Source of the DNA: Thermoanaerobaculia bacterium
GTDB lineage: Bacteria > Acidobacteriota > Thermoanaerobaculia > Gp7-AA8
DNA: 64,000 bases
Direction of reading: 5' to 3'
NCBI GenBank assembly: GCA_035629865.1
Contig: DASPHC010000055.1
Span: 70,940 to 134,939, forward strand
The notes under the pieces are model-generated. The model was not told the origin of the DNA, made no database searches, and was given only the letters and a program-made list of their open reading frames with translations. Position numbers and translations under genes: made by a program. Each line of letters opens with the position of its first letter. Within the stretch, counting starts at the first letter, position 1. Positions 5,461 to 61,990 of this stretch are shown here, piece by piece.

Positions 5461-5559
5461 GACAGCCCCACTTCTGCCTTCTGCCCTCTGCCTTTCCCAC
5501 GTGGTCAATTCGCTGACCCTTTAGACACCTTTGGTGGGTTATATTCTCACCCCGCCATC

Positions 5560-8500
5560 ATGACAACGACCATCGAAGGTGTCGCTCCGGACGTCGCTCT
5601 TCCTCCTCGTTATCAGATTCGCCAAGTGCTGAAGCAGACTGCGGAGACTTCCGTGTTCCGGGTCTTCGACGTGCCGGATCGGCGCGATGAGGCGATCAAG
5701 ATCCTCTGTCACGAGGTCACGGATCCGCAACAGCTTCTCCGGTTCAAGACAGAGTTCGCGACGCTCGCCTCGCTCGAGCATGCGAGCGTGATCAAGGTCT
5801 ATGACTTCGGCGTCCTGCAGGACCGGTATCCCTACTTCACGATGGAGTTTTTCGCCGGGAAGCGGATCACGGAGTTTTTTGACGGACAGAATTGGGACGC
5901 GCTGTTCGACGTGATCCTGCAGATCGCCTCGGGGCTGCACCACATCCACCACCTCGGCATCGTGCACCTCGACCTGAAGCCGTCGAACATCCTGGTCTCC
6001 GAAGACGGCAAGGCGAAGATCATGGATTTCGGCCTGGCCATCGAGAGCCGGCGCGTATTCGACCGGAAGATCCGCGGGACGCTGCAGTACATGGCCCCCG
6101 AGGTACTGCGGCAGGACCGCGTCGACTCGCGCGCCGACCTCTACGCCCTCGGCATGACGCTCTACGAGACCGTCACCGGCGCCCTTCCGGGCTACGGCCG
6201 TCCGTCGATCGAAGTGATCCGCATGCACCTCGACGAGGAGATCCGCAGGCCTTCGTCGATCAACCCCCGCGTGCCAGAAGCGCTCGAGCAGATCATCATG
6301 AAGATGCTCGAGAAGGACCCGCGGCATCGCTTTCCCTCGGCCGCGGCGCTCCTGCAGGCGGTCGCCGAGGCGGCGGGGAAGAAGGCGCCGGCGGCGGAGC
6401 TGCTGGTCGGCCGCGGAGAGCTGTTCGCCGCGCCGCTGATCGGGCGGAAGAACGAAGTCGATCAGTTGATGCATCTGATCGTCGAGGCGCGCGACGGCCG
6501 CGGCGACGGGGTCATCCTCGCGGGCGGCGAGGGGATGGGGAAGAGCCGCATCGTGCGCGACGTGACGCTGCGCGCGCAGCTCGACGGCGGCCGCGTCTTC
6601 ACCGGCCGTTGCCCGGTGAACCGCAAGACCATCTACGCGCCGTTCTTCGACATCTTCCAGCAGATGGTGTCGGCGGTGAACCCGGAGGCCGACGTCTCCG
6701 AGGAGATCCGGCGCATCCTCCGTCCGGTGGTCGGCTCGGCGGGACCGGACACCAGCCCGCCGCGGCACGGCCAGAAGTTCCGTCTCTACAACCGGATCGT
6801 GCAGTCGATGCAGGACCTCTACGGATTCCTGAGCGTCGGCAGCGAGACCGGCGGCTCGCCGCTGATCCTGGTGATCGAGGACCTGCAGTGGGCCGATCCG
6901 TCGACCGCGGAGCTCTTCTCGTTCCTGGTGGGCGAGGCGAAGCAGAACAAGCTGCTGGTGATCGGCACGCTGACGCTCGACTCGCACGGCGAGGCGAGCA
7001 TCGAGTCGCCGTCGCCGAGCCTGGCGTTCTGGGAGCTGCGAGCCCGCGAGGCGTCGTTTCCGATCGTGCGGGTGGAGACGCTCACCGAGCCGCTCGTCCG
7101 CGAGCACGTGCAGTCGCTTCTCGGCGACACGAAAGTCTCCGACGAGCTCGTACGCTGGATGCTGTGGGAGTCGGCCGGCACGCCGCTGAACATCCGCCGC
7201 ATCATCGATTACCTCATCACTCACGACTATCTCCAGTGGACGCCGGGCGGCTGGACGGCCGACATGGACCGCATCCGGGTGCTGCGCATCCCCGGCGGCT
7301 TCGCGTCGATTCTGATGGAGAAGGCGGAGGCGCTGACGCCGGAGCAGCGGACGCTGCTCGACATCGCCTCGGTGGTCGGGGAGTCGATGGATCTCGAGCT
7401 GTTGACGCGGCTCTCGGACGCAACGCCGGAGGAGACGTTCGCGTCGCTGCGCGAGCTGACGCGCCTCGGTCTTCTCGACGAGTCGAACGACGGCAACATC
7501 ATCACCTTCCCGCAGATGCATCTGCGTGAGACGGTCTACAACGCCATGCCGGAGCGGCGGCGGACGGAGCTCCACCTGCGCGTCGGCGAGGCGATGGAGC
7601 CGGCGGCGAACGACGGCTCGACGCAGCTGGTCGGCCAGGTCGCGTATCACTTCTCCCGTGCGAACGACATCGAGCGCGGCACGCGCTGCTCGATCGAGGC
7701 GGGCGATCTCGCCTCGCGCACCCTGGCGCACGAGGAAGCGACGGAGTTCTACCGCGTCGCCCTGGAGATGATGGACCTGGGCGGCGTCGAGGAGGCGCGC
7801 AAGGCGGAGGTTCGCGAGAAGCTGGCCGATGCGTATTACCGCCGCGACGACTATCGCAGCGCCATCCATGCGTACCAGTTCCTCCTGAAGTCGATCCAGA
7901 GCCGCCATCCGGACGACGACGCGAACGTGGACGTCGCCCGGGTGATGAAGAAGATCGGCAAGGTGCTGGCGCGGCGCGGCGAGCAGGAAACGGCGATGAC
8001 GTACTACCAGGGCGCTCTGGCGATCTACGAGCGCCTCGGCCAGACCGTCGACGTCGCCGAGATGCTCAACCGCATCGCCTGGATGTACCGGATGCGCGAC
8101 GACTTCACCACCGCCCGCGAAACGGCGGAGCGCGCGCGGGTGATGCTGGAGACGATGGAGCCGACGGTCGTCTACGGCTACGTGAAGAACATCCTCGGCC
8201 TGATCGAGTTCGCCGGCGGCAACTGGCAGCGCTCGCGGGAACTGCTGACCGAATCGCTCGCGATCGGTGAGAAGCTCGGGAGCGAACAGCTCTGCAAGGT
8301 CGCCTCGATGAACCTCGGCAACACGGTCTGGAAGCTCGGCGAGTGGGAGACCGCGCTGCAGTACTTCCGCAAGAACCTGGAGCGCTCCGAGGGCGAAGGG
8401 GACCTGTGGGACCTCGTCACCGCCTACAACAACGTCGGCGTCGTCGAGTACGGCCGCGGAAACTTCCACGCCGCGGCGGAGCTGTTCGAGAAGAGCGTCC

Positions 8501-10866
8501 GCATCGACGAGAAGATCGGCGCGTTCGAGCATGAGGCGCTGGCGCGGGAGAACCTGGCCGACGCGCTGGAGATGCTCGGCAAGTGGAACGAGGCTCTGGA
8601 GCAGTATCGCCGCTGCCTCAGCCTGGAAGGGTTCGACGAGACGCGCGCGTCGCGGCTGTCGGTGTACGTCCCGCTGGCGCGCCTGACGAAGAAGCGCGGC
8701 GACATCAACAAGTCGATCGAGTACGCGCACAAGGCCATGGCCGCCGGCGAGCGCGCCCGCGACGTAGACCTGATTGCCGAGGCGGCGTACGTGCTGGCGT
8801 CGATCGAAGACGAGCGGGGGAACGCGGAGGAGGCGGAGAAGTACCTTCTGCGTGCAATGCAGATCTACGAGGCCAACCACACCCTGCACGGGCTGGCCCG
8901 CTCGCACACCGCGGCGGCCTGCATGGTGCTGACGAAGGGCGACATCGACGGGGCGGTCAAGCACGCGCAGATCGCGGAACAGTACGCGCGGCAGCTCGGC
9001 GACCGCTTCTCGCTGGCGAAGAACGACTGGGCGTGGGCGAAGATCGAGAGCTCGCGCGGCGAGCGCGAGGCGGCGACGGCGAAGTTCGACTCGGTGCGGG
9101 CGGCGTTCGAGGAGCTCGACACGCCGTACGAGCTGGGGCGGCTGATGTTCGACATCGGCCTGCTGCGCGACGAGCCGGAAGAGGCGACCCAGACCATCCG
9201 CAGCGCCATCCGGATCTTCGAGAAGCTCGACGCCACGCATGACCTGGAGCGGGCGCGCGGCGCGCTGTTCCGCATCCGCCCGGCCGGCAAGGCGCCGGAG
9301 CAGGGCGTGGTCGGCCTCTACGAGGTCGTCAAGATCATCAACTCGACGCTGAATCTCGAGGAAGTGCTGAGCCGCGTCCTCGACGTCTGCATCCGCAGGC
9401 TGCGCGCCGAGCGAGGCATGATCCTGCTGCTCGACCCGCTGACCAACGCGCTCCGCACGCGCGTGGTCCGCAACATCAAAGACGGCGCGGAAGGGGAGTC
9501 GAAGCGCTCGCCGCAGTCGATCGTCAAGGAAGTGATCCAGACCGGGCAGTCGGTGATGTCCGCCGACGCGCGGGCCGATCATCGCTTCGTGGAGTCGGAG
9601 TCGGTGATCGCGGAGAACATCATCTCCATCCTCTGCGCGCCGCTCATCATCAAGGAACGGATCTCGGGCGCCATCTACATCGACCACCGCCAGGCGCGGC
9701 ACCTCTTCTCGCAGAAGGACCTCAGCTTCCTGGAGGCGTTCGCCGACCAGGCGGCCATCGCGATCGAGAACGCGCGGCTCTACGAGGAGCTCGAGGAAGC
9801 GCGCACGCGGCTGTCGCTCGAGAACGAGACCCTGCGCCGCGAGGTGCTGGTCGAGAAGCATCTCGACTCGGTGATCGGACAGTCCGAGGTGGTGGCCAAG
9901 ATCCAGTTCGCGGTCCGCAAGGCTTCCGCCGGACACTCGACGGTGCTGGTGCGCGGCGAGTCCGGCACGGGCAAGGGCCTCATCGCCCGGATCATCCACA
10001 ACATCGGACCGCGCCGGAACGGGCCGTTCATCAAGTTCAACTGTGCCGCGCTGCCGGAGACGCTGGCGGAGTCGGAGCTGTTCGGCCACGAAAAAGGCGC
10101 GTTCACCGGCGCGGACCGCCGCAAGCTGGGACGCTTCGAGCTGGCCAACCATGGCACGATCTTCCTCGACGAGATCGGGAAGATGTCGCTGGCCATGCAG
10201 GCCAAGCTGCTGCGCGTGGTGGAGGACAAGGAGTTCGAGCGCGTCGGCGGAACGCAGACCATCAAGACCGACGTGAAGATCGTCACCGCCACGAACCTCG
10301 AGCTGGAGAAGGCGATCGAGGACAACACCTTCCGCGAGGACCTCTTCTACCGGCTGAACATCATCCCGATCATGCTCCCGCCGCTGCGCGACCGGAAGGA
10401 CGACATCCCGCTGCTGGCCGAGCATTTCATCCGCAAGATCTGCAAGGACCTCGGCGTCGACAACAAACGCCTCGAGCCGGGCGTGCTCGATCTCTTCATG
10501 CGCTACGACTGGCCGGGCAACGTCCGCGAGCTGGAGTCGACGCTGCACCGCGCCATCGTCATGTCCAATGGCGACATGATGACCAGGACCGACTTCTACA
10601 CCCTCTACTCGGCCCAGGCCCCGGCGCTGGTTGTCGCCGACGCCGCGTCGACGATGCCGAGCTCCATCACCGGACCGCTGGCCGGGAAGATGGAGATCAC
10701 CAGCGAGGTCTACGACGAGGTGATGTCCGCGGTCGACAAGCAGCTCATCCTCCGCGCCCTGGAAAGCTGCGGCGGCCGGATCCGCGAAGCCGCCCGCCGC
10801 CTCGGCCTGGCCAGGAACACGCTGAAGTCGAAGATCCAGAAGTACAACATCGCCGTGAGAGAGTAG
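5560..10866 (+). CDS. Giant signalling protein (1768 aa): Ser/Thr kinase, STAND/AAA P-loop NTPase, TPR array, GAF domain, sigma54-interaction AAA+ domain and Fis-type HTH. It is a kinase-fused bacterial enhancer-binding protein.
   Basis: Kinase motifs HLDLKPSNILV, DFGLA, APE. Walker A GGEGMGKSR (~aa 320). Many TPR-like repeats (aa ~700-1250). GAF-like segment (ILLLDPLTNALRTR...AIYIDHR). Sigma54 activator motifs GESGTGKGLIARIIH, ELFGHEKGAFTGA (GAFTGA), GTIFLDEIG. C-terminal HTH RIREAARRLGLARNTLKSKIQKYNI. The long minus-strand ORF 5539..11340 is antisense artefact. Confidence 0.85.
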   Translation: MTTTIEGVAPDVALPPRYQIRQVLKQTAETSVFRVFDVPDRRDEAIKILCHEVTDPQQLLRFKTEFATLASLEHASVIKVYDFGVLQDRYPYFTMEFFAGKRITEFFDGQNWDALFDVILQIASGLHHIHHLGIVHLDLKPSNILVSEDGKAKIMDFGLAIESRRVFDRKIRGTLQYMAPEVLRQDRVDSRADLYALGMTLYETVTGALPGYGRPSIEVIRMHLDEEIRRPSSINPRVPEALEQIIMKMLEKDPRHRFPSAAALLQAVAEAAGKKAPAAELLVGRGELFAAPLIGRKNEVDQLMHLIVEARDGRGDGVILAGGEGMGKSRIVRDVTLRAQLDGGRVFTGRCPVNRKTIYAPFFDIFQQMVSAVNPEADVSEEIRRILRPVVGSAGPDTSPPRHGQKFRLYNRIVQSMQDLYGFLSVGSETGGSPLILVIEDLQWADPSTAELFSFLVGEAKQNKLLVIGTLTLDSHGEASIESPSPSLAFWELRAREASFPIVRVETLTEPLVREHVQSLLGDTKVSDELVRWMLWESAGTPLNIRRIIDYLITHDYLQWTPGGWTADMDRIRVLRIPGGFASILMEKAEALTPEQRTLLDIASVVGESMDLELLTRLSDATPEETFASLRELTRLGLLDESNDGNIITFPQMHLRETVYNAMPERRRTELHLRVGEAMEPAANDGSTQLVGQVAYHFSRANDIERGTRCSIEAGDLASRTLAHEEATEFYRVALEMMDLGGVEEARKAEVREKLADAYYRRDDYRSAIHAYQFLLKSIQSRHPDDDANVDVARVMKKIGKVLARRGEQETAMTYYQGALAIYERLGQTVDVAEMLNRIAWMYRMRDDFTTARETAERARVMLETMEPTVVYGYVKNILGLIEFAGGNWQRSRELLTESLAIGEKLGSEQLCKVASMNLGNTVWKLGEWETALQYFRKNLERSEGEGDLWDLVTAYNNVGVVEYGRGNFHAAAELFEKSVRIDEKIGAFEHEALARENLADALEMLGKWNEALEQYRRCLSLEGFDETRASRLSVYVPLARLTKKRGDINKSIEYAHKAMAAGERARDVDLIAEAAYVLASIEDERGNAEEAEKYLLRAMQIYEANHTLHGLARSHTAAACMVLTKGDIDGAVKHAQIAEQYARQLGDRFSLAKNDWAWAKIESSRGEREAATAKFDSVRAAFEELDTPYELGRLMFDIGLLRDEPEEATQTIRSAIRIFEKLDATHDLERARGALFRIRPAGKAPEQGVVGLYEVVKIINSTLNLEEVLSRVLDVCIRRLRAERGMILLLDPLTNALRTRVVRNIKDGAEGESKRSPQSIVKEVIQTGQSVMSADARADHRFVESESVIAENIISILCAPLIIKERISGAIYIDHRQARHLFSQKDLSFLEAFADQAAIAIENARLYEELEEARTRLSLENETLRREVLVEKHLDSVIGQSEVVAKIQFAVRKASAGHSTVLVRGESGTGKGLIARIIHNIGPRRNGPFIKFNCAALPETLAESELFGHEKGAFTGADRRKLGRFELANHGTIFLDEIGKMSLAMQAKLLRVVEDKEFERVGGTQTIKTDVKIVTATNLELEKAIEDNTFREDLFYRLNIIPIMLPPLRDRKDDIPLLAEHFIRKICKDLGVDNKRLEPGVLDLFMRYDWPGNVRELESTLHRAIVMSNGDMMTRTDFYTLYSAQAPALVVADAASTMPSSITGPLAGKMEITSEVYDEVMSAVDKQLILRALESCGGRIREAARRLGLARNTLKSKIQKYNIAVRE

Positions 10867-10935
10867 AGACTGGTTGCTGGTTGTCTGGGCGTTTCGGTTC
10901 TTGCGGGACGTATGCGCGACGTCATCGGGCAAAAT

Positions 10936-11198
10936 CCTTACGGCGAGACGCCGCCGCCGGCGGGACGCCGCCGGACCAGCCGACGAGGACGTCGGCGCTC
11001 CAGGCGCGGACCGCGGTTCTCGCGAATCGGGCCGTCCGCAGTTCTCGCGAATCGGGCCGTCCGCGGTTCTCGCGAATCGAAACGTCGGCATTCCAGCGCA
11101 CGACCGATGCTCGTGAACGGAGGTCCGCGCGTGGAGCGCCGACGTCCTCGTCGGCTGGCCCGGCGGCGTCCCGCCGGCGCACGGCGTCTCGCCGTAAG
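10936..11198. repeat. MITE-like element with ~75-bp near-perfect terminal inverted repeats (CCTTACGGCGAGACGCC...) and three internal tandem 24-bp repeats (GGTTCTCGCGAATCGGGCCGTCCGC)
   Basis: Left arm 10936-11010 is the reverse complement of right arm 11121-11198. Internal direct repeats sit at 11012-11085. A shorter copy occurs at 44645-44830. Confidence 0.8.
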
Positions 11199-11285
11199 GG
11201 TGGTGCCCAATCACCTGGTAGCGCGGTATCCTTGTCCTGGTGAACGCCGGTTCCGCCCGGCGGGTGTGCGAAAAGGGGAGGGCCA

Positions 11286-11482
11286 TGGCTGTCGTCGAAA
11301 CCGCCGTACGGGACCTCGAGAATATCCAGATGAGTCTCATCCGGCTTCACGCTCTTCTCGCGCAGCACACCATGTCGGTCTCCGACCGCCATCGCGTCGA
11401 CAGCTACTTCGACGCGTTCGCGTCCGATCTCGTCGGACTCGAAGAGTTTTTGCGCAGCATGCCCACCACTTCGCGAACGTAA
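11286..11482 (+). CDS. Small hypothetical protein (65 aa)
   Basis: ORF with a good RBS (aggggagggccATG); no recognisable motifs. Start chosen at the internal Met preceded by the RBS. Confidence 0.3.
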
Positions 11483-28053: not shown

Positions 28054-28143
28054 TGGTGCCCCGGGCCGGACTCGAACCGGCACGCCCCTCACGAGGCAGC
28101 GGATTTTAAGTCCGCAGCGTCTACCAAATTCCGCCACCGGGGC
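28054..28143 (-). tRNA. tRNA-Leu (anticodon UAA), class II with long variable arm
   Basis: Minus-strand transcript GCCCCGGTGGCGGAATTTGGTAGACGCTGCGGACTTAAAATCCGCTGCCTCGTGAGGGGCGTGCCGGTTCGAGTCCGGCCCGGGGCACCA. 7-bp acceptor stem, D-arm, anticodon stem GCGGA/TCCGC with loop CTTAAAA (anticodon TAA), long variable arm, T-arm GGTTCGAGTCC, encoded CCA. Confidence 0.9.
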
Positions 28144-38652: not shown

Positions 38653-39315
38653 ATGAAACGTTTCCTCCTCGTTGCAGGTGTCTGCGCGCTGCTCGCCCCG
38701 GCCCTCGATGCGGCCGTAGTCAACGGTAAGGTGATGTTCCTCACCAAGCGCGGTCAGAAGCCGGTCGCCAACGAGACCCTGGTGTGGCTCGACACCGCCG
38801 GCAAGGCCCCGAAGAAGCCGGCCGCGACGTTCACCATGACCACCCGCAGCAAGACCCTCCTCCCGCACGTCCTCGCCGTCCCCGCCGGCTCGACCGTCAC
38901 CTTTCCGAACGACGACCCCATCACCCACAACCTCTTCTCCCTCACCCCCGGCAATACCTTCGACCTCGGCCTCTACCGCAAAGGGTCCGGCAAGACCCAC
39001 AAGTTCGAAGCTCCCGGCATCGTCAGCGTCTACTGCAATATCCACCCGAACATGTCGGCGCTGGTGCACGTGATGGCGACCCCCTACTATGGTTTTGCCG
39101 ACGCGAACGGCAATTACTCGTTCGACGTCCCCGCGGGGAAGTATCGTGTCACCGCCTGGAACGAGCAGGGAGGGACGGCCACCTCGGAGATCGACGTGCA
39201 GGGGGACGGGAAGGTGGCCGGCGTCACGCTGCTCACCATCGACGGACGGAACTTCCGGGCCGTGCAGCACAAGAACAAGACCGGCCAGGCCTACAAGCCG
39301 CCGCGCGACTACTGA
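38653..39315 (+). CDS. Secreted type-1 (blue) copper cupredoxin-like protein with C-terminal carboxypeptidase-regulatory-like beta-sandwich
   Basis: Signal peptide MKRFLLVAGVCALLAPALDA. Candidate Cu ligands H (ITHNLFS) and C-x2-H-x2-M (VYCNIHPNM). C-terminal YYGFADANGNYSFDVPAGKYRVTAWN. Confidence 0.55.
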   Translation: MKRFLLVAGVCALLAPALDAAVVNGKVMFLTKRGQKPVANETLVWLDTAGKAPKKPAATFTMTTRSKTLLPHVLAVPAGSTVTFPNDDPITHNLFSLTPGNTFDLGLYRKGSGKTHKFEAPGIVSVYCNIHPNMSALVHVMATPYYGFADANGNYSFDVPAGKYRVTAWNEQGGTATSEIDVQGDGKVAGVTLLTIDGRNFRAVQHKNKTGQAYKPPRDY

Positions 39316-39367
39316 ACCGGACAGGCCCGAGGGCTGAGAGTCGCGGCTACGAGGAGTTGGAGCACAC

Positions 39368-42163
39368 ATGACTGCGCAGACGCTCGACAGGGCGACGGTC
39401 TCGGATCAGGAGCTTCCGCAGAAGAAGGAGTACACCGTCGAGCGAGCCCGCGTGCCGCTCGTCCTCAAACTGTTCGGCCTCACGGCGCTCCTGATCGCCG
39501 CCGTCGTCGCCACCGCCGTCGGGATCACCCTCCGGCGCGCGAACACGATTGCCGGCGAGACCGTCAACGCCTCGATCACCAGCGCGGCCAAGCTGTTCCA
39601 CGAACTGGAAGAGCAGCGGCTGAAACGCCTCGAGCTCCCGGCCGCGCTCCTCGGCAATGACCCCTACTTCACGGCTGCCATCGAAGAGAGTCTCACCGGC
39701 GGGGCCGCCGCCGCGCCGGTCACCGATCCCGCAGCGCCTCCCATTGCCGTAACCGACCCGGCGGCAGCGCCCGTGACGCCGCCCGCCCCCGTGGCGATCG
39801 ATTTCGCCAGCATCACCGACCAGCTCGAGCAGCGGCGCGACGCCTTCGGCACCGACCTGCTCATGCTGCTCGACGACCAGGGGCGGCTCATCCACCGCAC
39901 CGACAAGCCGGCCACCGCGACGCCCGCGATGACCGACTTCTACGAGCAGTCGGTCATCGTCAAGCGCCTCATCGAAGAGAGCCTGTCGACGTCGTCGGGA
40001 GTATTCCTGCTCGATGGACAGCTCTATCACGCAGCGGTCGCGCCGATCGGAATCGGCACGCCGCGCAAGATCGTGGGCCATCTCGTCAACGCCGTCGCGA
40101 TCGACGAGGCCTTTGCCAACAGCATCGCCGAGTCGACCAAGGCGGGGGTCATGTTCACCGGGGCCGGCGCGCAGGCCGTCCGCTCCGCCAACGCCCCCAG
40201 CGTCATGCCGAAGGCGGTCACGCCGGGGCGCACCGAGACCGCCACGGTCGACAACAGCCGCTACATCCTCACCGGCGAGCCGCTCCGGGCGGGTACCCAG
40301 ACCCTCGGCACGGCCATCTTCCTCCGTTCCCTCGACCGCGAGCTTGCGCCGTTCCGCCAGATCAACAACACCCTTCTCATGGGCGGCGGCCTGGCCCTGC
40401 TGCTGGCGTTCCTCCTCTCCTGGCTCATCGCCAAACGCCTCACCCGTCCGATCGAGCAGCTGGCCGTAGTGGCGCAGGCGGTGACGAACGGCGACTACAG
40501 CGTCAGTCCCGACGTCACCCGCAACGATGAGGTGGGGATTCTCGGCCGGTCGTTCGGCAAGATGATCACCTCACTCCGCGACAAGGTGGAGCTCGAGGAG
40601 CTCTACTCCCAGATGGCCGACCGTGCCGACGAAGCGCCCGCCGCGGCGACCCGCGTCGTCGAGCCGGCGAAGCTGGACGAGGGGACCGTGCTCGTCACCG
40701 ACCTCCGCGGCCTTCCCGCCACCGTCGGCGAGGGCGACGCCGCCTCGGTGATCGCGATCGTCGAGCGGGCCATGCAGATGCAGCAGCGCGAAGTGGCGCG
40801 GCAGGACGGCGAGGTCCGCGAGATCAACGGCCATCGCCTCGTCTCTGTCTTCCGAGGAGAGCGCGGGATCATCCACGCCATCCGGGCCGCGCGGGCCATC
40901 AACGAAGAACTGGCGACGCAGACCGGCGGCGGGACGCCGATGGCCCTCGCCGTCGGCATCGCCACCGGCGAGTTCGTCACCGGCTCCGTCACCGTCGAAG
41001 GGGAGAGCGGCGTCGCCATCGTCGGCAACGCCCCGCTCCTGGCACTGCTCTTCGCCTGGCACGCACCGACCGGCTACGCCTACGTCTCCTACGAGACCGC
41101 GCAGGCGGCCGGCGGCGAGATCCTCAGCTCCTCCCAGCGCGAAGAAGTGCGGCTCAAGTGGCTGCCGAATCCGCTCCCTGTGGCCTCGCTCCCTCTCGTG
41201 AGCGTGACCACCGGCATGATGCGCTCCATCGGGGCGAACACGGCGTCGATGGCGACGCTGCGGATGGACAGCAGCACCGCCGCCGGGATCACCGCCCCCG
41301 GCTCGCCGCACCAGGACCTGATCCTCGGCCATTTCTTCGCCAACCGCTACCGGATCGAGCAGATCCTCGGCCGCGGCGGCATGGGGGTGGTCTACAAGGC
41401 CACCGACACGCAGCTCGACGAGATCGTGGCCATCAAGACCCTCCCGGGCGACGTCATGACGCGCTCCCCTGAGGACCTGGAACGGTTCAAACGGGAGATC
41501 CGCCTGGCGCGCAAGATCACCCACCGCAACGTCCTCCGGACGTACGACTACGGCGAGGCCGAAGGGGTGTACTTCATCAGCATGGAGTTCGTGCGCGGCT
41601 ACACCCTCTCCGAGCTCCTCGACGAGGCGCCGCAGCGCCAGATGGCCGCCCGCCCGTCCGCCGGCGTCACCCGCCAGATCTGCCGCGGCCTCCAGGCCGC
41701 CCACGAGCAGGGGATCATCCACCGCGACATCAAGCCGCAGAATGTCCTCATCGACGCCAAGGGCGAGGTCAAGCTGATGGACTTCGGCATCGCCCGCATG
41801 GCCGAGACGCCCGAGAACATGACCCAGGCGGGCCTCATCATCGGCACCCCGCACTACATGAGCCCCGAGCAGGTCCAGGGCAAACAGCTCGACGCCCGCA
41901 GCGACGTCTACTCGATGGGCGTGATGATCTACGAAATGCTCGTCGGCCAACGCCCGTTCGAATCGACCTCCCTCATGGGAGTCCTCACCGCCCACGTGAC
42001 CGAAAAGCCGAAGCCGGCCATCGAGCTCCGGCCGGACATCGGCAAAGAGGTGAACACGATCGTCATGCGCTGCCTGGCCAAGGACCCGGCGGCAAGGTAC
42101 GCGAACGCCGGGGAGTTGCTCGCGGAACTGGAGAGCGTGCAGGTCCTGAGCGCAGCGGCGTAG
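39368..42163 (+). CDS. Membrane sensor: periplasmic sensor domain, HAMP, degenerate class-III nucleotidyl cyclase homology domain, C-terminal Ser/Thr protein kinase
   Basis: TM at aa ~30-55, second TM then HAMP (IAKRLTRPIEQLAVVAQAVTNGDYS). CHD-like GTVLVTDLRGLPATV...LAVGIATGEFVTGSV lacks the second metal-binding Asp (INGHRL instead of IGDAxM). Kinase motifs LGRGGMGVVYKA, AIKTL, HRDIKPQNVLI, DFGIA, SPEQ. Confidence 0.8.
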   Translation: MTAQTLDRATVSDQELPQKKEYTVERARVPLVLKLFGLTALLIAAVVATAVGITLRRANTIAGETVNASITSAAKLFHELEEQRLKRLELPAALLGNDPYFTAAIEESLTGGAAAAPVTDPAAPPIAVTDPAAAPVTPPAPVAIDFASITDQLEQRRDAFGTDLLMLLDDQGRLIHRTDKPATATPAMTDFYEQSVIVKRLIEESLSTSSGVFLLDGQLYHAAVAPIGIGTPRKIVGHLVNAVAIDEAFANSIAESTKAGVMFTGAGAQAVRSANAPSVMPKAVTPGRTETATVDNSRYILTGEPLRAGTQTLGTAIFLRSLDRELAPFRQINNTLLMGGGLALLLAFLLSWLIAKRLTRPIEQLAVVAQAVTNGDYSVSPDVTRNDEVGILGRSFGKMITSLRDKVELEELYSQMADRADEAPAAATRVVEPAKLDEGTVLVTDLRGLPATVGEGDAASVIAIVERAMQMQQREVARQDGEVREINGHRLVSVFRGERGIIHAIRAARAINEELATQTGGGTPMALAVGIATGEFVTGSVTVEGESGVAIVGNAPLLALLFAWHAPTGYAYVSYETAQAAGGEILSSSQREEVRLKWLPNPLPVASLPLVSVTTGMMRSIGANTASMATLRMDSSTAAGITAPGSPHQDLILGHFFANRYRIEQILGRGGMGVVYKATDTQLDEIVAIKTLPGDVMTRSPEDLERFKREIRLARKITHRNVLRTYDYGEAEGVYFISMEFVRGYTLSELLDEAPQRQMAARPSAGVTRQICRGLQAAHEQGIIHRDIKPQNVLIDAKGEVKLMDFGIARMAETPENMTQAGLIIGTPHYMSPEQVQGKQLDARSDVYSMGVMIYEMLVGQRPFESTSLMGVLTAHVTEKPKPAIELRPDIGKEVNTIVMRCLAKDPAARYANAGELLAELESVQVLSAAA

Positions 42164-42174
42164 CGCGTCAACGC

Positions 42175-42335
42175 ACAGGGGACGACCGGGAGGCCTCCGG
42201 CGGGCGGGCACGGCCCGCGGCGTTTGTTTTCGCATGGACCGCGTTTCGTGCGAGACGCGTGCGTTCAGCCTTGGGCGACAAACGCCGCGGGCCGTGCCCG
42301 CCCGCCGGAGGCCCCCGTCGTCTCCTGTGCCGGTG
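42175..42335. repeat. ~150-bp imperfect palindrome (GACGACCGGGAGGCCTCCGGCGGGCGGGCACGGCCCGCGGCGTTTGT ... inverted partner) between convergent gene ends; possible bidirectional terminator / MITE. Second copy at 55055-55205.
   Basis: Arm 42178-42225 is the reverse complement of 42283-42330; the same element recurs at 55058-55200. Confidence 0.75.
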
Positions 42336-59750: not shown

Positions 59751-59807
59751 TTCCAGTAGAAACCGCGGACGGCGTATCGCGCCGCCGTAGGCGGCGGAAG
59801 ATCTGTT

Positions 59808-60546
59808 AGGGGTAGGAGGAGGCCTCCCGGCCTCCCCCTCCCTCCGAACCGGACTGGCGGATCTCCCGCATCCGGCTCTCCAGGGGTGGATGCGATGGCA
59901 GATGTGTACACGTGGGACTTGCGTCACGGTGAAAGAAGTCTGACGTGCTGACTCACTGCTGAGTCACTCTGTCACCAGAGCCCATCTACATCGGTCGATC
60001 AGCGCCCCGGCGGGTGCGAGCACGAATTCGCCTGCTCGCAGCTCTCGCGTTTCTAGCCTTTCGGCAATTGGCGATTCCCCGTCTTGACGTTGCCTTCCGA
60101 TTCCACCTCCCTGCCTCCCTTTGCTCCACGCCCGTTACAGCGCTTCTCAGCTCCTATGGAGGCTCAGTCACCCGTCTGCCTTTCACTTGCGCAGCTGCGG
60201 GGATCCCCGATTCACGTCACCTGAATCTTCCTGTCGTTCTGTCTCCAACCACCCCGTGCCTTCCCATGTCCGCTTTCTCCATGCTCGGTTAACTTTCGCG
60301 TTCTGGGTTCGTCACCGTAGAGCCGTTTCCCGTCAGCGCTCATCGGTTTCCAAGGCTTCGCCTCTGCCTAGCAGGCTCGCCAAGACACAAGGCCGAATCG
60401 AGTTTCTAGTCGTACGGACCGACAGGCTCGCCTTCCGTTGCTCTCCACCCCGTCTTACGACGACGCAGTTTCGGTCGGCTTTCAACCAGTCGAGCATTTG
60501 GTTGAGAGTGTTCTCACCTCCTCTTTCAGGTGCGCTTTCGAGCGCA
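59808..60546 (-). ncRNA. ORF-less group II intron (~740 nt), inserted into the left terminal inverted repeat of a MITE copy
   Basis: Minus-strand 5' end GUGCGCUCGAAAGCGCACC (GUGYG) begins immediately after MITE sequence (+ strand 60541-60546 gcgcac). Domain V at 59846-59878 reads GAGCCGGAUGCGGGAGAUCCGCCAGUCCGGUUC (consensus GAGCCGUAUGCGAUGAAAGUCGCACGUACGGUUC), with the AGC triad and a GNRA loop. Domain VI-like hairpin GGAGGCC-GGGA-GGCCUCC with a bulged A follows. The region has lower GC (~55%) and no protein-like ORFs. MITE TIR halves flank it at 59785-59807 and 60547-60570. Confidence 0.65.
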
Positions 60547-60740
60547 CTAAGCCCGCCCTTCAGGGCGGGTATCGTGCGGCCCCCATGAAGGCGAGTCCGC
60601 GAAGCGGGCGACAGAACAGGGACACGCGAAAACCTACGCTGTCGCCCGCTTCGCGGACTTGCCTCGTCTCCTCGACCTTTACCCGGCCTGAAGGCCGGGC
60701 CTACAGATCTTTTGCCGCCTACGGCGGCGGCGGATCGTTC
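60547..60740. repeat. Second copy of the ~230-bp MITE-like core, whose left TIR is interrupted by the group II intron (the outer TIR half lies at 59785-59807)
   Basis: taagcccgcccttcagggcggg...gagtccgcgaagcgggcgacagaacagggacacgcg...gtcgcccgcttcgcggacttgcc...ccggcctgaaggccgggcctacagatcttttgccgcctacggcggc. Compare 48853-49085. Confidence 0.75.
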
Positions 60741-60835
60741 CTGCGAGGCCTCCAGGCGATTTCTTCACAGCTTCTGAGACATCGTCCCCCGGGCTTGCGC
60801 TGCTGCCGGGCCGGCTTCTTGCTACCATCCGCGCC

Positions 60836-61900
60836 GTGACGGAAATCCCGGTTCAACAGCCGGTGGGGATGACAGGAGCGCAGGTGGCGGATGTCGACGT
60901 CAACCCTGCCGAGGCGCTGCTCGAGGTGAAGAACCTCCGCACGTCGTTCGGCTCGGTGCATGCGGTCGACAACGTGTCGTTCAACGTGCGGCGCGGCGAA
61001 GCGGTGGCCCTGGTCGGCGAGTCGGGCTGCGGCAAGAGCGTGACCGCGATGTCGATCATGCGGCTGATCGCGCCGCCCGGAAAGATCACCGCGGGGCAGG
61101 TCAGTTTCAAGGGAAGGGACCTGGCCAGTATCTCCGAGCGGGACATGCGCAACGTGCGCGGCAACGACATCGCCATGGTCTTCCAGGAGCCGATGACGTC
61201 GCTCAACCCGGTCTTCAAGATCGGCGCGCAGGTGGCCGAGGCGATCCGTATCCACCGGAAAGTCGGCAAGAAGGAAGCGTGGAAGCAGGCGGGGGAGATG
61301 CTGGAGCTCGTCTCGATCCCCGATCCGGTCAAGCGGCTGGACGACTATCCGCACCAGCTCTCCGGCGGCATGCGCCAGAGGGTGATGATTGCCATCGCCC
61401 TCTCGTGCGACCCGGAGCTGCTGATCGCCGACGAGCCGACGACCGCGCTCGACGTGACCATTCAGGCGCAGATCATGGAGCTGCTGGCGTCGCTGCAGAA
61501 GAAGCTCGGCCTGGCCGTGCTGCTCATCACCCACGATCTCGGCGTGGTGGCGGAGTTCTGCGAGCGGGTCATCGTGATGTACACCGGCCGCGTGGTCGAA
61601 GACGCGCCGGTGGAGCAGCTCTTCGCCAACCCTTCCCATCCATACACGCGCGGCCTGCTCAAGTCGCTCCCCGGCGCCGCACTCGTCGCCGGCACGCCGA
61701 TCGGCCGCCTCCCGACCATCGCCGGCATGGTCCCGTCGATCACGAATCTGCCGAAGGGCTGCAAGTTCAACCCCCGTTGCCCCGACGTGATGGATATCTG
61801 CCTCGGCAACGAGCCGGCGCTCATGCCGGTCGGGCCGGGACAATCCGCTCGGTGCTATTTGCATGGGGATGCGGCGGACCCGGAACGGATTGAGAATTGA
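60836..61900 (+). CDS. Oligopeptide/dipeptide ABC transporter ATP-binding protein (OppD/DppD-like)
   Basis: Walker A GESGCGKS, signature LSGGMRQR, Walker [14 protein letters not shown]-terminal oligopeptide-ABC extension with [10 protein letters not shown] (Cys cluster). Confidence 0.8.
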
Positions 61901-61904
61901 GGAT

Positions 61905-61990
61905 TGAGGATTAGGAAGAACGAGAGATGACCGCCCGGACACCGAATCCTCAATCCTCAATTCTCAATCCTCAATCCGGGTCTTGCGAGG
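61905..61990. repeat. Inverted array of TTGAGGA heptamers between the two ATPase genes
   Basis: gaattgaggattgaggattagg...ccgaatcctcaatcctcaattctcaatcctcaatccgg. Confidence 0.7.

Follow-up and report, generated by a model that had tools for sequence, protein, structure and literature searches.

A conserved pairing of a secreted blue-copper-like protein with a membrane sensor kinase in a Thermoanaerobaculia bacterium

A 64,000-nucleotide stretch of DNA from a Thermoanaerobaculia bacterium (hereafter the window) contains two adjacent genes that raise the question of why a secreted copper protein should be encoded directly upstream of a transmembrane protein kinase. Gene A (38653-39315, plus strand) encodes a secreted cupredoxin-like protein of 220 residues, and gene B (39368-42163, plus strand) a membrane sensor Ser/Thr kinase of 931 residues, each reading frame ending in a stop codon. 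A preliminary description of the locus had placed both open reading frames at these positions, on this strand and with A upstream of B, and this arrangement holds. Proteins A and B are 100% identical to database proteins P0001 and P0121, respectively, which both come from one Thermoanaerobaculia contig of a metagenome-assembled genome. On the strength of the genomic context and of a conserved copper site, we consider it somewhat probable that A is a periplasmic copper/redox co-sensor of B, that is, its signal-perceiving subunit.

Protein A, a secreted protein of the cupredoxin type

The AlphaFold model of A, built from a 56-sequence alignment, has a pLDDT of 93.3 and a pTM of 0.87. We compared this model with the structures of the PDB using Foldseek. 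The best matches are type-1 copper cupredoxins, with a probability of 1.00 and TM-scores of 0.7-0.8 (target-normalised), and the top 50 matches are blue copper proteins or relatives sharing the cupredoxin fold. Among them are the Nitrosopumilus cupredoxin 5fc9, pseudoazurin, amicyanin and plastocyanin; FtrB, the cupredoxin of a Brucella iron-uptake system, is found at rank 40. The cupredoxin domain comprises residues 51 to 141 (38803-39075) and harbors a predicted set of type-1 copper ligands consisting of H92 (38926-38928), C128 (39034-39036), H131 (39043-39045) and M134 (39052-39054), all on the plus strand. The last three are arranged as C-x2-H-x2-M, which is the spacing of amicyanin.

These residues are strongly conserved. 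D88, H92, D104, C128 and H131 are invariant among 56 diverse relatives of A that are 31-60% identical, and both M134 and the C-terminal tail are kept in at least 90% of them. For the comparison of genomic loci, one genome per species was scanned with a 15-sequence A query, which yielded at least 593 relatives of A; the loci discussed below are the 80 best-scoring of these, at 35-80% identity. An HN motif together with C-x2-H-x2-M is present in all 80. The modelled fold and the ligand set thus confirm A as a cupredoxin-type protein with a predicted type-1 copper site, in line with the fold and ligand pattern first proposed for it, and the protein would be expected to bind copper.

Profile comparisons place the copper domain in the same surroundings. 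In an alignment of the A family profile, the C-N-I-H-P-x-M loop falls on the ligand loop that NirK proteins have in their C-terminal cupredoxin domain (E 3e-10), and the profile also matches amicyanin (E 2e-5). The nearest solved sequences to the copper domain are electron-donor type-1 copper domains, namely those of NirK and amicyanin. An assignment of A as amicyanin itself was rejected, with a score of 18.2 bits against the TIGR02657 cut-off of 110.2 and with polysaccharide-synthesis and housekeeping genes as neighbours. No Met/His-rich copper-trafficking motifs were found in the A sequence.

Export of A is indicated by a predicted signal peptide, MKRFLLVAGVCALLAPALDA, covering residues 1 to 20 (38653-38712, plus strand), with a cleavage site placed by eye. 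A scan for transmembrane and hydrophobic segments revealed a hydrophobic stretch at residues 3-25, and in the model the first strand starts at residue 21, with low pLDDT ahead of that residue. The secretion previously ascribed to A is borne out by this hydrophobic N-terminal segment, and the mature protein is presumably periplasmic. Inspection by eye ruled out a lipoprotein, there being no lipobox in the residues before C11.

The remainder of A is unusual for a protein of this class. Residues 142 to 200 (39076-39252) form a β-sandwich that resembles CarboxypepD_reg domains and is prealbumin-like. The carboxypeptidase-regulatory-like domain named in the preliminary description is thus visible as a match to PF13620 (26.3 bits, E 9.5e-6, residues 143-186), but the match does not reach the cut-off of 32.3. 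The C-terminal part of the A family profile matches NOMO/CarboxypepD_reg repeats with an E of 1.4e-11, and the fold assignment is likely, though sub-threshold. When residues 21-50 are spliced onto residues 141-200, the PF13620 score rises from 26.3 to 30.5 bits and the coverage of the profile extends from 28-73 to 11-73. The N-terminal strands, residues 21 to 50 (38713-38802), may thus complete the C-terminal sandwich, and the sequence suggests an insertion of the copper domain into one of its loops. The protein ends in a basic tail (39253-39312, plus strand) with the conserved columns H206-K-N-K209-x-G211-x-x-Y214...Y220. This tail is invariant in one alignment of A relatives (A2), has a similar counterpart in 60 of the 80 loci and is modelled at a pLDDT of 80-97.

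A therefore shares with amicyanin, pseudoazurin, plastocyanin and the C-terminal extension of NirK the Greek-key fold, the His/Cys/His/Met ligand set and the short C-x2-H-x2-M loop. It differs from these type-1 cupredoxins by the CarboxypepD_reg-like sandwich that seems to enclose the copper domain, by the basic HKNKxGxxY tail and by its linkage to a signalling receptor instead of a dehydrogenase or reductase.

An exhaustive search placed 11,502 clusters at 50% identity in the A family, with E values up to 0.001, and no dedicated Pfam or NCBIfam model exists for it. Homologs carry the database names 'plastocyanin' or 'methylamine utilization protein', the latter in the case of P0051 at NCBI. 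As judged from the name of P0051 only, this second name likely goes back to MauL of the methylamine dehydrogenase clusters. MauL is catalogued as a protein with a cupredoxin domain, and no role has been assigned to it. The window differs from such clusters, with no mau-type or other methylamine gene among the 10 neighbours of the pair that were scanned with Pfam. Nine relatives of A (P0251, P0254, P0256, P0273, P0310, P0314, P0315, P0362 and P0372) are much longer, at 630-1150 residues, and contain 6-10 tandem cupredoxin segments.

Conservation of the gene pair

The 80 loci belong to Thermoanaerobaculia, Vicinamibacteria, Terriglobia, Bryobacterales and Gemmatimonadota, apart from a few bins that carry other labels. 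We searched the DNA within 6 kb of each A homolog with a hidden Markov model (HMM) of the periplasmic part of B alone, without HAMP. A partner sensor domain was found in 74 of the 80 loci, and in three of the six others the contig ends within 900 nt of A. Gene-pair conservation had been posed beforehand, like the cupredoxin fold, as a point on which the proposed pairing could fail, and the pair proved to be widely kept. The background is low: the remaining flanking DNA of these loci contains one extra copy of the sensor domain, and the 64-kb window contains none besides B. Adjacency of A and B is kept in Thermoanaerobaculia relatives despite different flanking genes.

These counts bear directly on whether the two genes could be functionally unrelated and adjacent only by chance. 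Such an explanation would find some room in the 52-nt gap between A and B and in the unrelated housekeeping and polysaccharide-synthesis genes on either side, but the flanking genes change between loci while the pair stays. The partner census and the background count effectively refute a fortuitous adjacency, which we regard as extremely improbable.

The outputs attached to the sensor domain are diverse. Among the 74 partners, 32 have a Ser/Thr kinase, 19 a histidine kinase, 12 a cyclase domain plus a Ser/Thr kinase, and six a cyclase alone; the remaining five are truncated or of other kinds. A Pfam scan of 50 proteins, comprising 49 downstream open reading frames from related loci and B of the window, detected HAMP in 48, Pkinase in 40, dCache_3 in 33, HisKA plus HATPase_c in seven and Guanylate_cyc in three. 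A Cache-like domain followed by HAMP and a canonical cyclase is the partner of the A homolog in L009, L012, L014 and L077. The topology itself is reversed in one case (L011:6650-8428, minus strand), where an N-terminal Pkinase domain is followed by a transmembrane segment and, at the C-terminus, by a homolog of the sensor domain, and HAMP is lacking.

Gene order and strand vary as well. Where A and the sensor gene follow each other on the same strand, the junctions are mostly overlapping or shorter than 30 nt. With partner start codons predicted mechanically, 41 of 55 such junctions overlap, 19 of them by 14 nt, which suggests coupled translation. In L009, L014 and L077, A and the cyclase gene are convergent on opposite strands, and in Terriglobia the order is response regulator, histidine kinase, porin-like gene and A. 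The constant element across the loci is A plus the extracytoplasmic sensor domain, whatever the order, strand or output. The preliminary description had joined A to a Ser/Thr-kinase sensor. The pair itself is real, but since A is also found with histidine-kinase and cyclase outputs, and once with an N-terminal kinase that lacks HAMP, the conserved partner is the Cache-like sensor domain and not the Ser/Thr kinase as such. Because it is the periplasmic domain to which A stays linked, with three output chemistries and in several gene orders, A and the sensor domain probably work together in the periplasm.

Three groups of loci show peculiarities of their own. In L067 (3939-5873), whose bin carries the label Clostridia, the gene before the A homolog encodes a fusion of Pkinase and FGE-sulfatase, and no Cache-type partner is present within 6 kb. 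Real exceptions to the pairing are few, and this is one of them. The partner in L048 (6629-9826) is a 1066-residue sensor-HAMP-kinase protein with a C-terminal Porin_5 match (E 7e-8), which is either a real fusion or the product of a missed stop or frameshift. In L003 (11513-13227), and also in L004 and L005, from another Thermoanaerobaculia lineage, a DarT plus Macro-domain pair of the DarTG toxin-antitoxin type lies immediately downstream of A and B.

Protein B and its cyclase-homology domain

Protein B consists, from its N-terminus, of a transmembrane segment, a Cache/CHASE4-like periplasmic domain, a second transmembrane segment, HAMP, a cyclase-homology domain and a Hanks-type kinase. The transmembrane segments, located by a transmembrane scan at residues ~27-58 and ~332-359, flank the extracytoplasmic sensor domain, which covers residues ~56-334 (39533-40369, plus strand). 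Its match to CHASE4 is a marginal pass, at 28.1 bits for a cut-off of 26.2. The dCache_3 match is weak in B of the window, and reaches its best E of 1.5e-18 among the partners of A homologs. HAMP follows the second transmembrane segment at residues 353-405 (40424-40582; PF00672, 53.6 bits, cut-off 25), and the kinase domain occupies residues 661-912 (41348-42103; PF00069, 192.9 bits, cut-off 31.7). The kinase motifs are intact, with the G-loop GRGGMG at 668, VAIK at 687, HRDIKPQN at 785 and DFG at 805. Above-cut-off Pfam matches thus support the periplasmic domain, HAMP and Hanks kinase that B had been credited with. The sensor domain of B also carries a low-complexity insert rich in Pro and Ala, GGAAAAPVTDPAAPPIAVTDPAAAPVTPPAPVA, at about residues 101-142 (39668-39793 of the window).

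An alignment of 72 partner domains contains no column in which His, Met or Cys is conserved at 40% or more, and displays four to five conserved Asp. A direct copper sensor of the CusS/PcoS type in B was rejected on this ground, the lack of conserved His, Met and Cys making a CusS-like metal site in the sensor domain unlikely. Since the conserved copper site is on A and the sensor domain of B lacks such conserved residues, A is proposed as the perceiving subunit.

The region between HAMP and the kinase has no Pfam annotation. Residues ~410-650 of B give no Pfam match even at an E of 10, PF00211 included, and none of the 120 B homologs listed is annotated with PF00211. A profile of this middle region from 15 close homologs nevertheless matches solved class III cyclases over ~150 residues (2w01, E 1.9e-7; 6fht, E 9e-6), and delimits a degenerate class III cyclase-homology domain at residues ~436-600 (40673-41167, plus strand). 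An HMM of the middle region also recognizes the equivalent regions of partner proteins in L015, L012 and L010, at 58.9, 51.3 and 47.8 bits, respectively. The equivalent domains of L015 and L010 pass the PF00211 cut-off (E 2.6e-11 and 3.4e-8); that of L012 is canonical by its catalytic residues and is the sole candidate for the third PF00211-positive partner. A model of residues 406-656 from the 15 close homologs has a pLDDT of 40.2, too low for a fold search, and its order of secondary structures is compatible with a cyclase fold. Judged by these profiles, the domain is homologous to class III cyclases.

Its catalytic residues have been largely replaced. When B is aligned with the domain of L012, a canonical cyclase (D...K-x-x-G-D...N...R), the first metal-binding Asp is kept as D445, and E485, H489, L557 and L561 occupy the positions of the substrate-specifying Lys, the second metal-binding Asp, and the transition-state Asn and Arg, respectively. 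The alignment with 2w01 agrees with these replacements, which are invariant among 37 close homologs. Where the domain had been called a pseudo-cyclase for lack of one metal-binding Asp, the call was right and understated, as four catalytic or substrate positions are replaced. The retention of D445, and the fact that more catalytic residues are left in the domains of L010 and L015, which also pass the PF00211 cut-off, would be the arguments for B as a bifunctional protein with an active cyclase alongside its kinase. Both of those domains are intermediate, having kept the second Asp and the Arg and lost the Asn. An active domain in B is very improbable given the four replacements, their invariance in close homologs and the lack of a PF00211 match in the window protein; the aligned residues indicate that it has almost certainly lost catalysis. 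A class of partner proteins of ~700 residues matches neither of the two cyclase-domain probes, so the cyclase domain looks optional, and HAMP would lie close to the kinase in these proteins.

The receptor-HAMP-cyclase-domain order of B is the same as that of bacterial HAMP-coupled class III adenylyl cyclases. Eukaryotic receptor guanylyl cyclases combine a pseudokinase with an active cyclase, and B would be the reverse of these, with a dead cyclase domain and an active kinase. B matches TIGR03903, the model of the TOMM kinase/cyclase fusions, through its kinase domain only, and has its domains in the opposite order to those fusions.

Possible functions of the pair

Both genes have a GGAG ribosome-binding site ~10 nt before the ATG. 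That of B lies in the 52-nt spacer (39316-39367, plus strand), in which a terminator search found none, and a GC hairpin downstream of B (42200-42218, plus strand) resembles a terminator by consensus match only. On the 5' side, the pair is preceded by polysaccharide-synthesis genes (DegT aminotransferase, hexapeptide transferase, methyltransferase, PhyH and glycosyltransferase), and on the 3' side it is followed, on the opposite strand, by a hypothetical gene and genes for M20 peptidase, rpoD, dnaG and mutS2. With such flanks, the pair forms a unit of its own.

Further components appear in other loci. An outer-membrane porin-like gene adjoins A in 32 of the 80 loci, usually directly upstream, and divergently in Gemmatimonadota. 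The encoded proteins are 450-590 residues long. They carry a signal peptide and an N-terminal coiled coil, end in Phe and match nothing in Pfam. Examples are L079:4361-5947 and L014:4490-5980, and the gene is also present in L011, L012, L017, L036, L040, L041, L054, L058, L069, L070, L074, L080, L082 and L083, among others. The window and its close relatives lack it. In loci of the histidine-kinase type, a response-regulator gene lies directly 5' of the kinase (L017:1631-2476, L036:1187-1972, L070:1538-2242, L079:1788-2489, L082:1240-2067 and others), which gives a four-gene unit of response regulator, Cache-HAMP histidine kinase, porin-like gene and cupredoxin.

The presence of response-regulator and porin-like genes next to A in these loci leads to another possible explanation, in which A is a regulated effector that carries electrons or handles copper in the periplasm and is encoded together with its own regulator, and the Cache domain of B senses a small molecule directly. 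The arrangement would be like that of cop/pco/cin-type loci, in which copper-responsive two-component systems neighbour proteins of the cupredoxin fold. Some copper-homeostasis operons bring such proteins together with a two-component system and an outer-membrane protein, and the resemblance favours this view, as do the small ligands that Cache domains normally bind and the electron-donor domains that are the closest solved relatives of the copper domain of A. However, the linkage spans three unrelated outputs, so that a shared regulatory target would need convergent rewiring, and the Ser/Thr kinases and cyclases have no DNA-binding partner in the locus. A mostly precedes the sensor gene on a shared transcript, where the junctions overlap, it lacks Met/His-rich copper-trafficking motifs, and no multicopper oxidase, P-type ATPase or RND genes are found among the 10 window neighbours scanned with Pfam. 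We consider an effector role for A possible and rather unlikely.

The porin-like gene, which lies directly upstream of A in those 32 loci, is also the starting point for a role of A as an enzyme or ligand-delivery protein, ferroxidase-like or copper-presenting and fed by the porin, that would supply the ligand of the Cache domain without stable redox-dependent docking. The invariant acidic residues D88 and D104 of the cupredoxin domain, the conserved Asp of the sensor domain and the occurrence of FtrB among the structural matches would fit such a function. Against it, the pair is kept in the window and its close relatives, where the porin gene is missing; a mononuclear type-1 site alone lacks an oxygen-reducing centre; and no transporter is linked to the pair among the 10 scanned neighbours. 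Delivery or enzymatic turnover by A thus appears distinctly unlikely.

We return to A as the proposed co-sensor of B. In such a mechanism, A would be exported to the periplasm and carry a type-1 (blue) copper site, whose oxidation state or copper loading would set the binding of A to, or its release from, the Cache-like domain of a B dimer. HAMP would relay the change inward, the dead cyclase-homology domain would act as a dimeric transmission or regulatory module ahead of the kinase, and the active Hanks kinase would then phosphorylate cytoplasmic targets. The conserved basic tail of A might dock into an acidic pocket of the sensor domain, which is an idea only. A and B would be in physical contact, the signal may be either redox state or copper availability, and the pseudo-cyclase domain would serve as a coupler.

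Several observations weigh against this interpretation. Type-1 copper proteins are classically electron carriers and not signalling ligands. A scores below the curated cupredoxin cut-offs, with 15.7 bits for Cupredoxin_1 (PF13473, cut-off 27) and 15.6 bits for Copper-bind (PF00127, cut-off 21.2). The 80 loci are mostly from one phylum and represent the closest subset of a much larger family, to which repeat proteins and probably further genomic contexts belong. In the window itself, A and B are separated by 52 nt and do not overlap. Finally, the pairwise identities among A proteins track those among their partner domains (Pearson 0.84, Spearman 0.55), but we do not take this as a sign of contact, since shared descent alone can explain it.

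The proposed arrangement has counterparts among known envelope sensors. CpxP acts as an accessory envelope protein on the extracytoplasmic PAS/Cache-like domain of the membrane transducer CpxA (PMC4160245), and QseG is encoded with, and acts on, the sensor-domain transducer QseE (PMC12691602, PMC6075780). A and B likewise display a conserved co-encoding of an accessory protein with a sensor domain, as do these two systems and YfiR-YfiN. YfiN also has a HAMP domain. The accessory proteins of the three systems are non-metalloproteins, whereas A would be a blue copper protein, and A differs further by its pairing with Ser/Thr-kinase, histidine-kinase and cyclase outputs. In CusS, PcoS and CopS, periplasmic copper is sensed directly by the sensor domain of the kinase (reviewed in PMC7558416). 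These kinases share with the proposed A-B system a kinase with two transmembrane segments and copper-related sensing in the periplasm; B differs from them in that the copper site is conserved on a separate protein, A. Our literature search revealed no paper on a blue copper protein as an accessory sensor subunit and none on the A-B gene pair, nor did we find a curated family for the pair. The parts are of known kinds, namely a cupredoxin, a Cache/CHASE sensor, HAMP, a class III cyclase fold and a Hanks kinase, and what would be new is the blue copper protein in accessory-dependent sensing.

Elsewhere in the window, an Rfam match to a group II intron (RF00029, 53.6 bits, above the gathering score) is located at 59805-59880 on the minus strand. 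A 413-residue open reading frame at 60719-61960, also on the minus strand and just upstream of the match on that strand, could encode the intron protein. A single long-arm tRNA of 87 nt lies at 28057-28143 (minus strand; Rfam, 56.8 bits), and a very long open reading frame of 1933 residues at 5539-11340 (minus strand) has a shadow open reading frame of equal length on the plus strand.

A more general proposal, which we put forward tentatively and hold at somewhat short of an even chance, is that a blue copper protein acts as a co-receptor in signalling, with a dedicated Cache-type domain that reads its Cu(I)/Cu(II) or apo/holo state, possibly via the basic tail. In Acidobacteriota and Gemmatimonadota, such an input module would have been coupled to Ser/Thr kinases, histidine kinases and cAMP as outputs, and the dead cyclase would have been kept as a coupler in the lineage of the window. 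The series from an active cyclase, through a partly degenerate cyclase plus kinase, to a dead cyclase plus kinase offers a clean system in which to follow how a pseudo-enzyme domain comes to be kept for signal coupling. If a family of receptors does use the A family as its input subunit, the annotation of many genomes is wrong, and A would be the first cupredoxin, as far as we found, with a sensory role as opposed to one in electron transport or enzymatic catalysis. It would also represent a new principle of bacterial sensing, in which periplasmic redox poise or copper supply is read via a blue copper site. Both Acidobacteriota and Gemmatimonadota abound in soil, and their signalling has hardly been studied; the A-B pair points to an undescribed way for such bacteria to sense redox state or copper.

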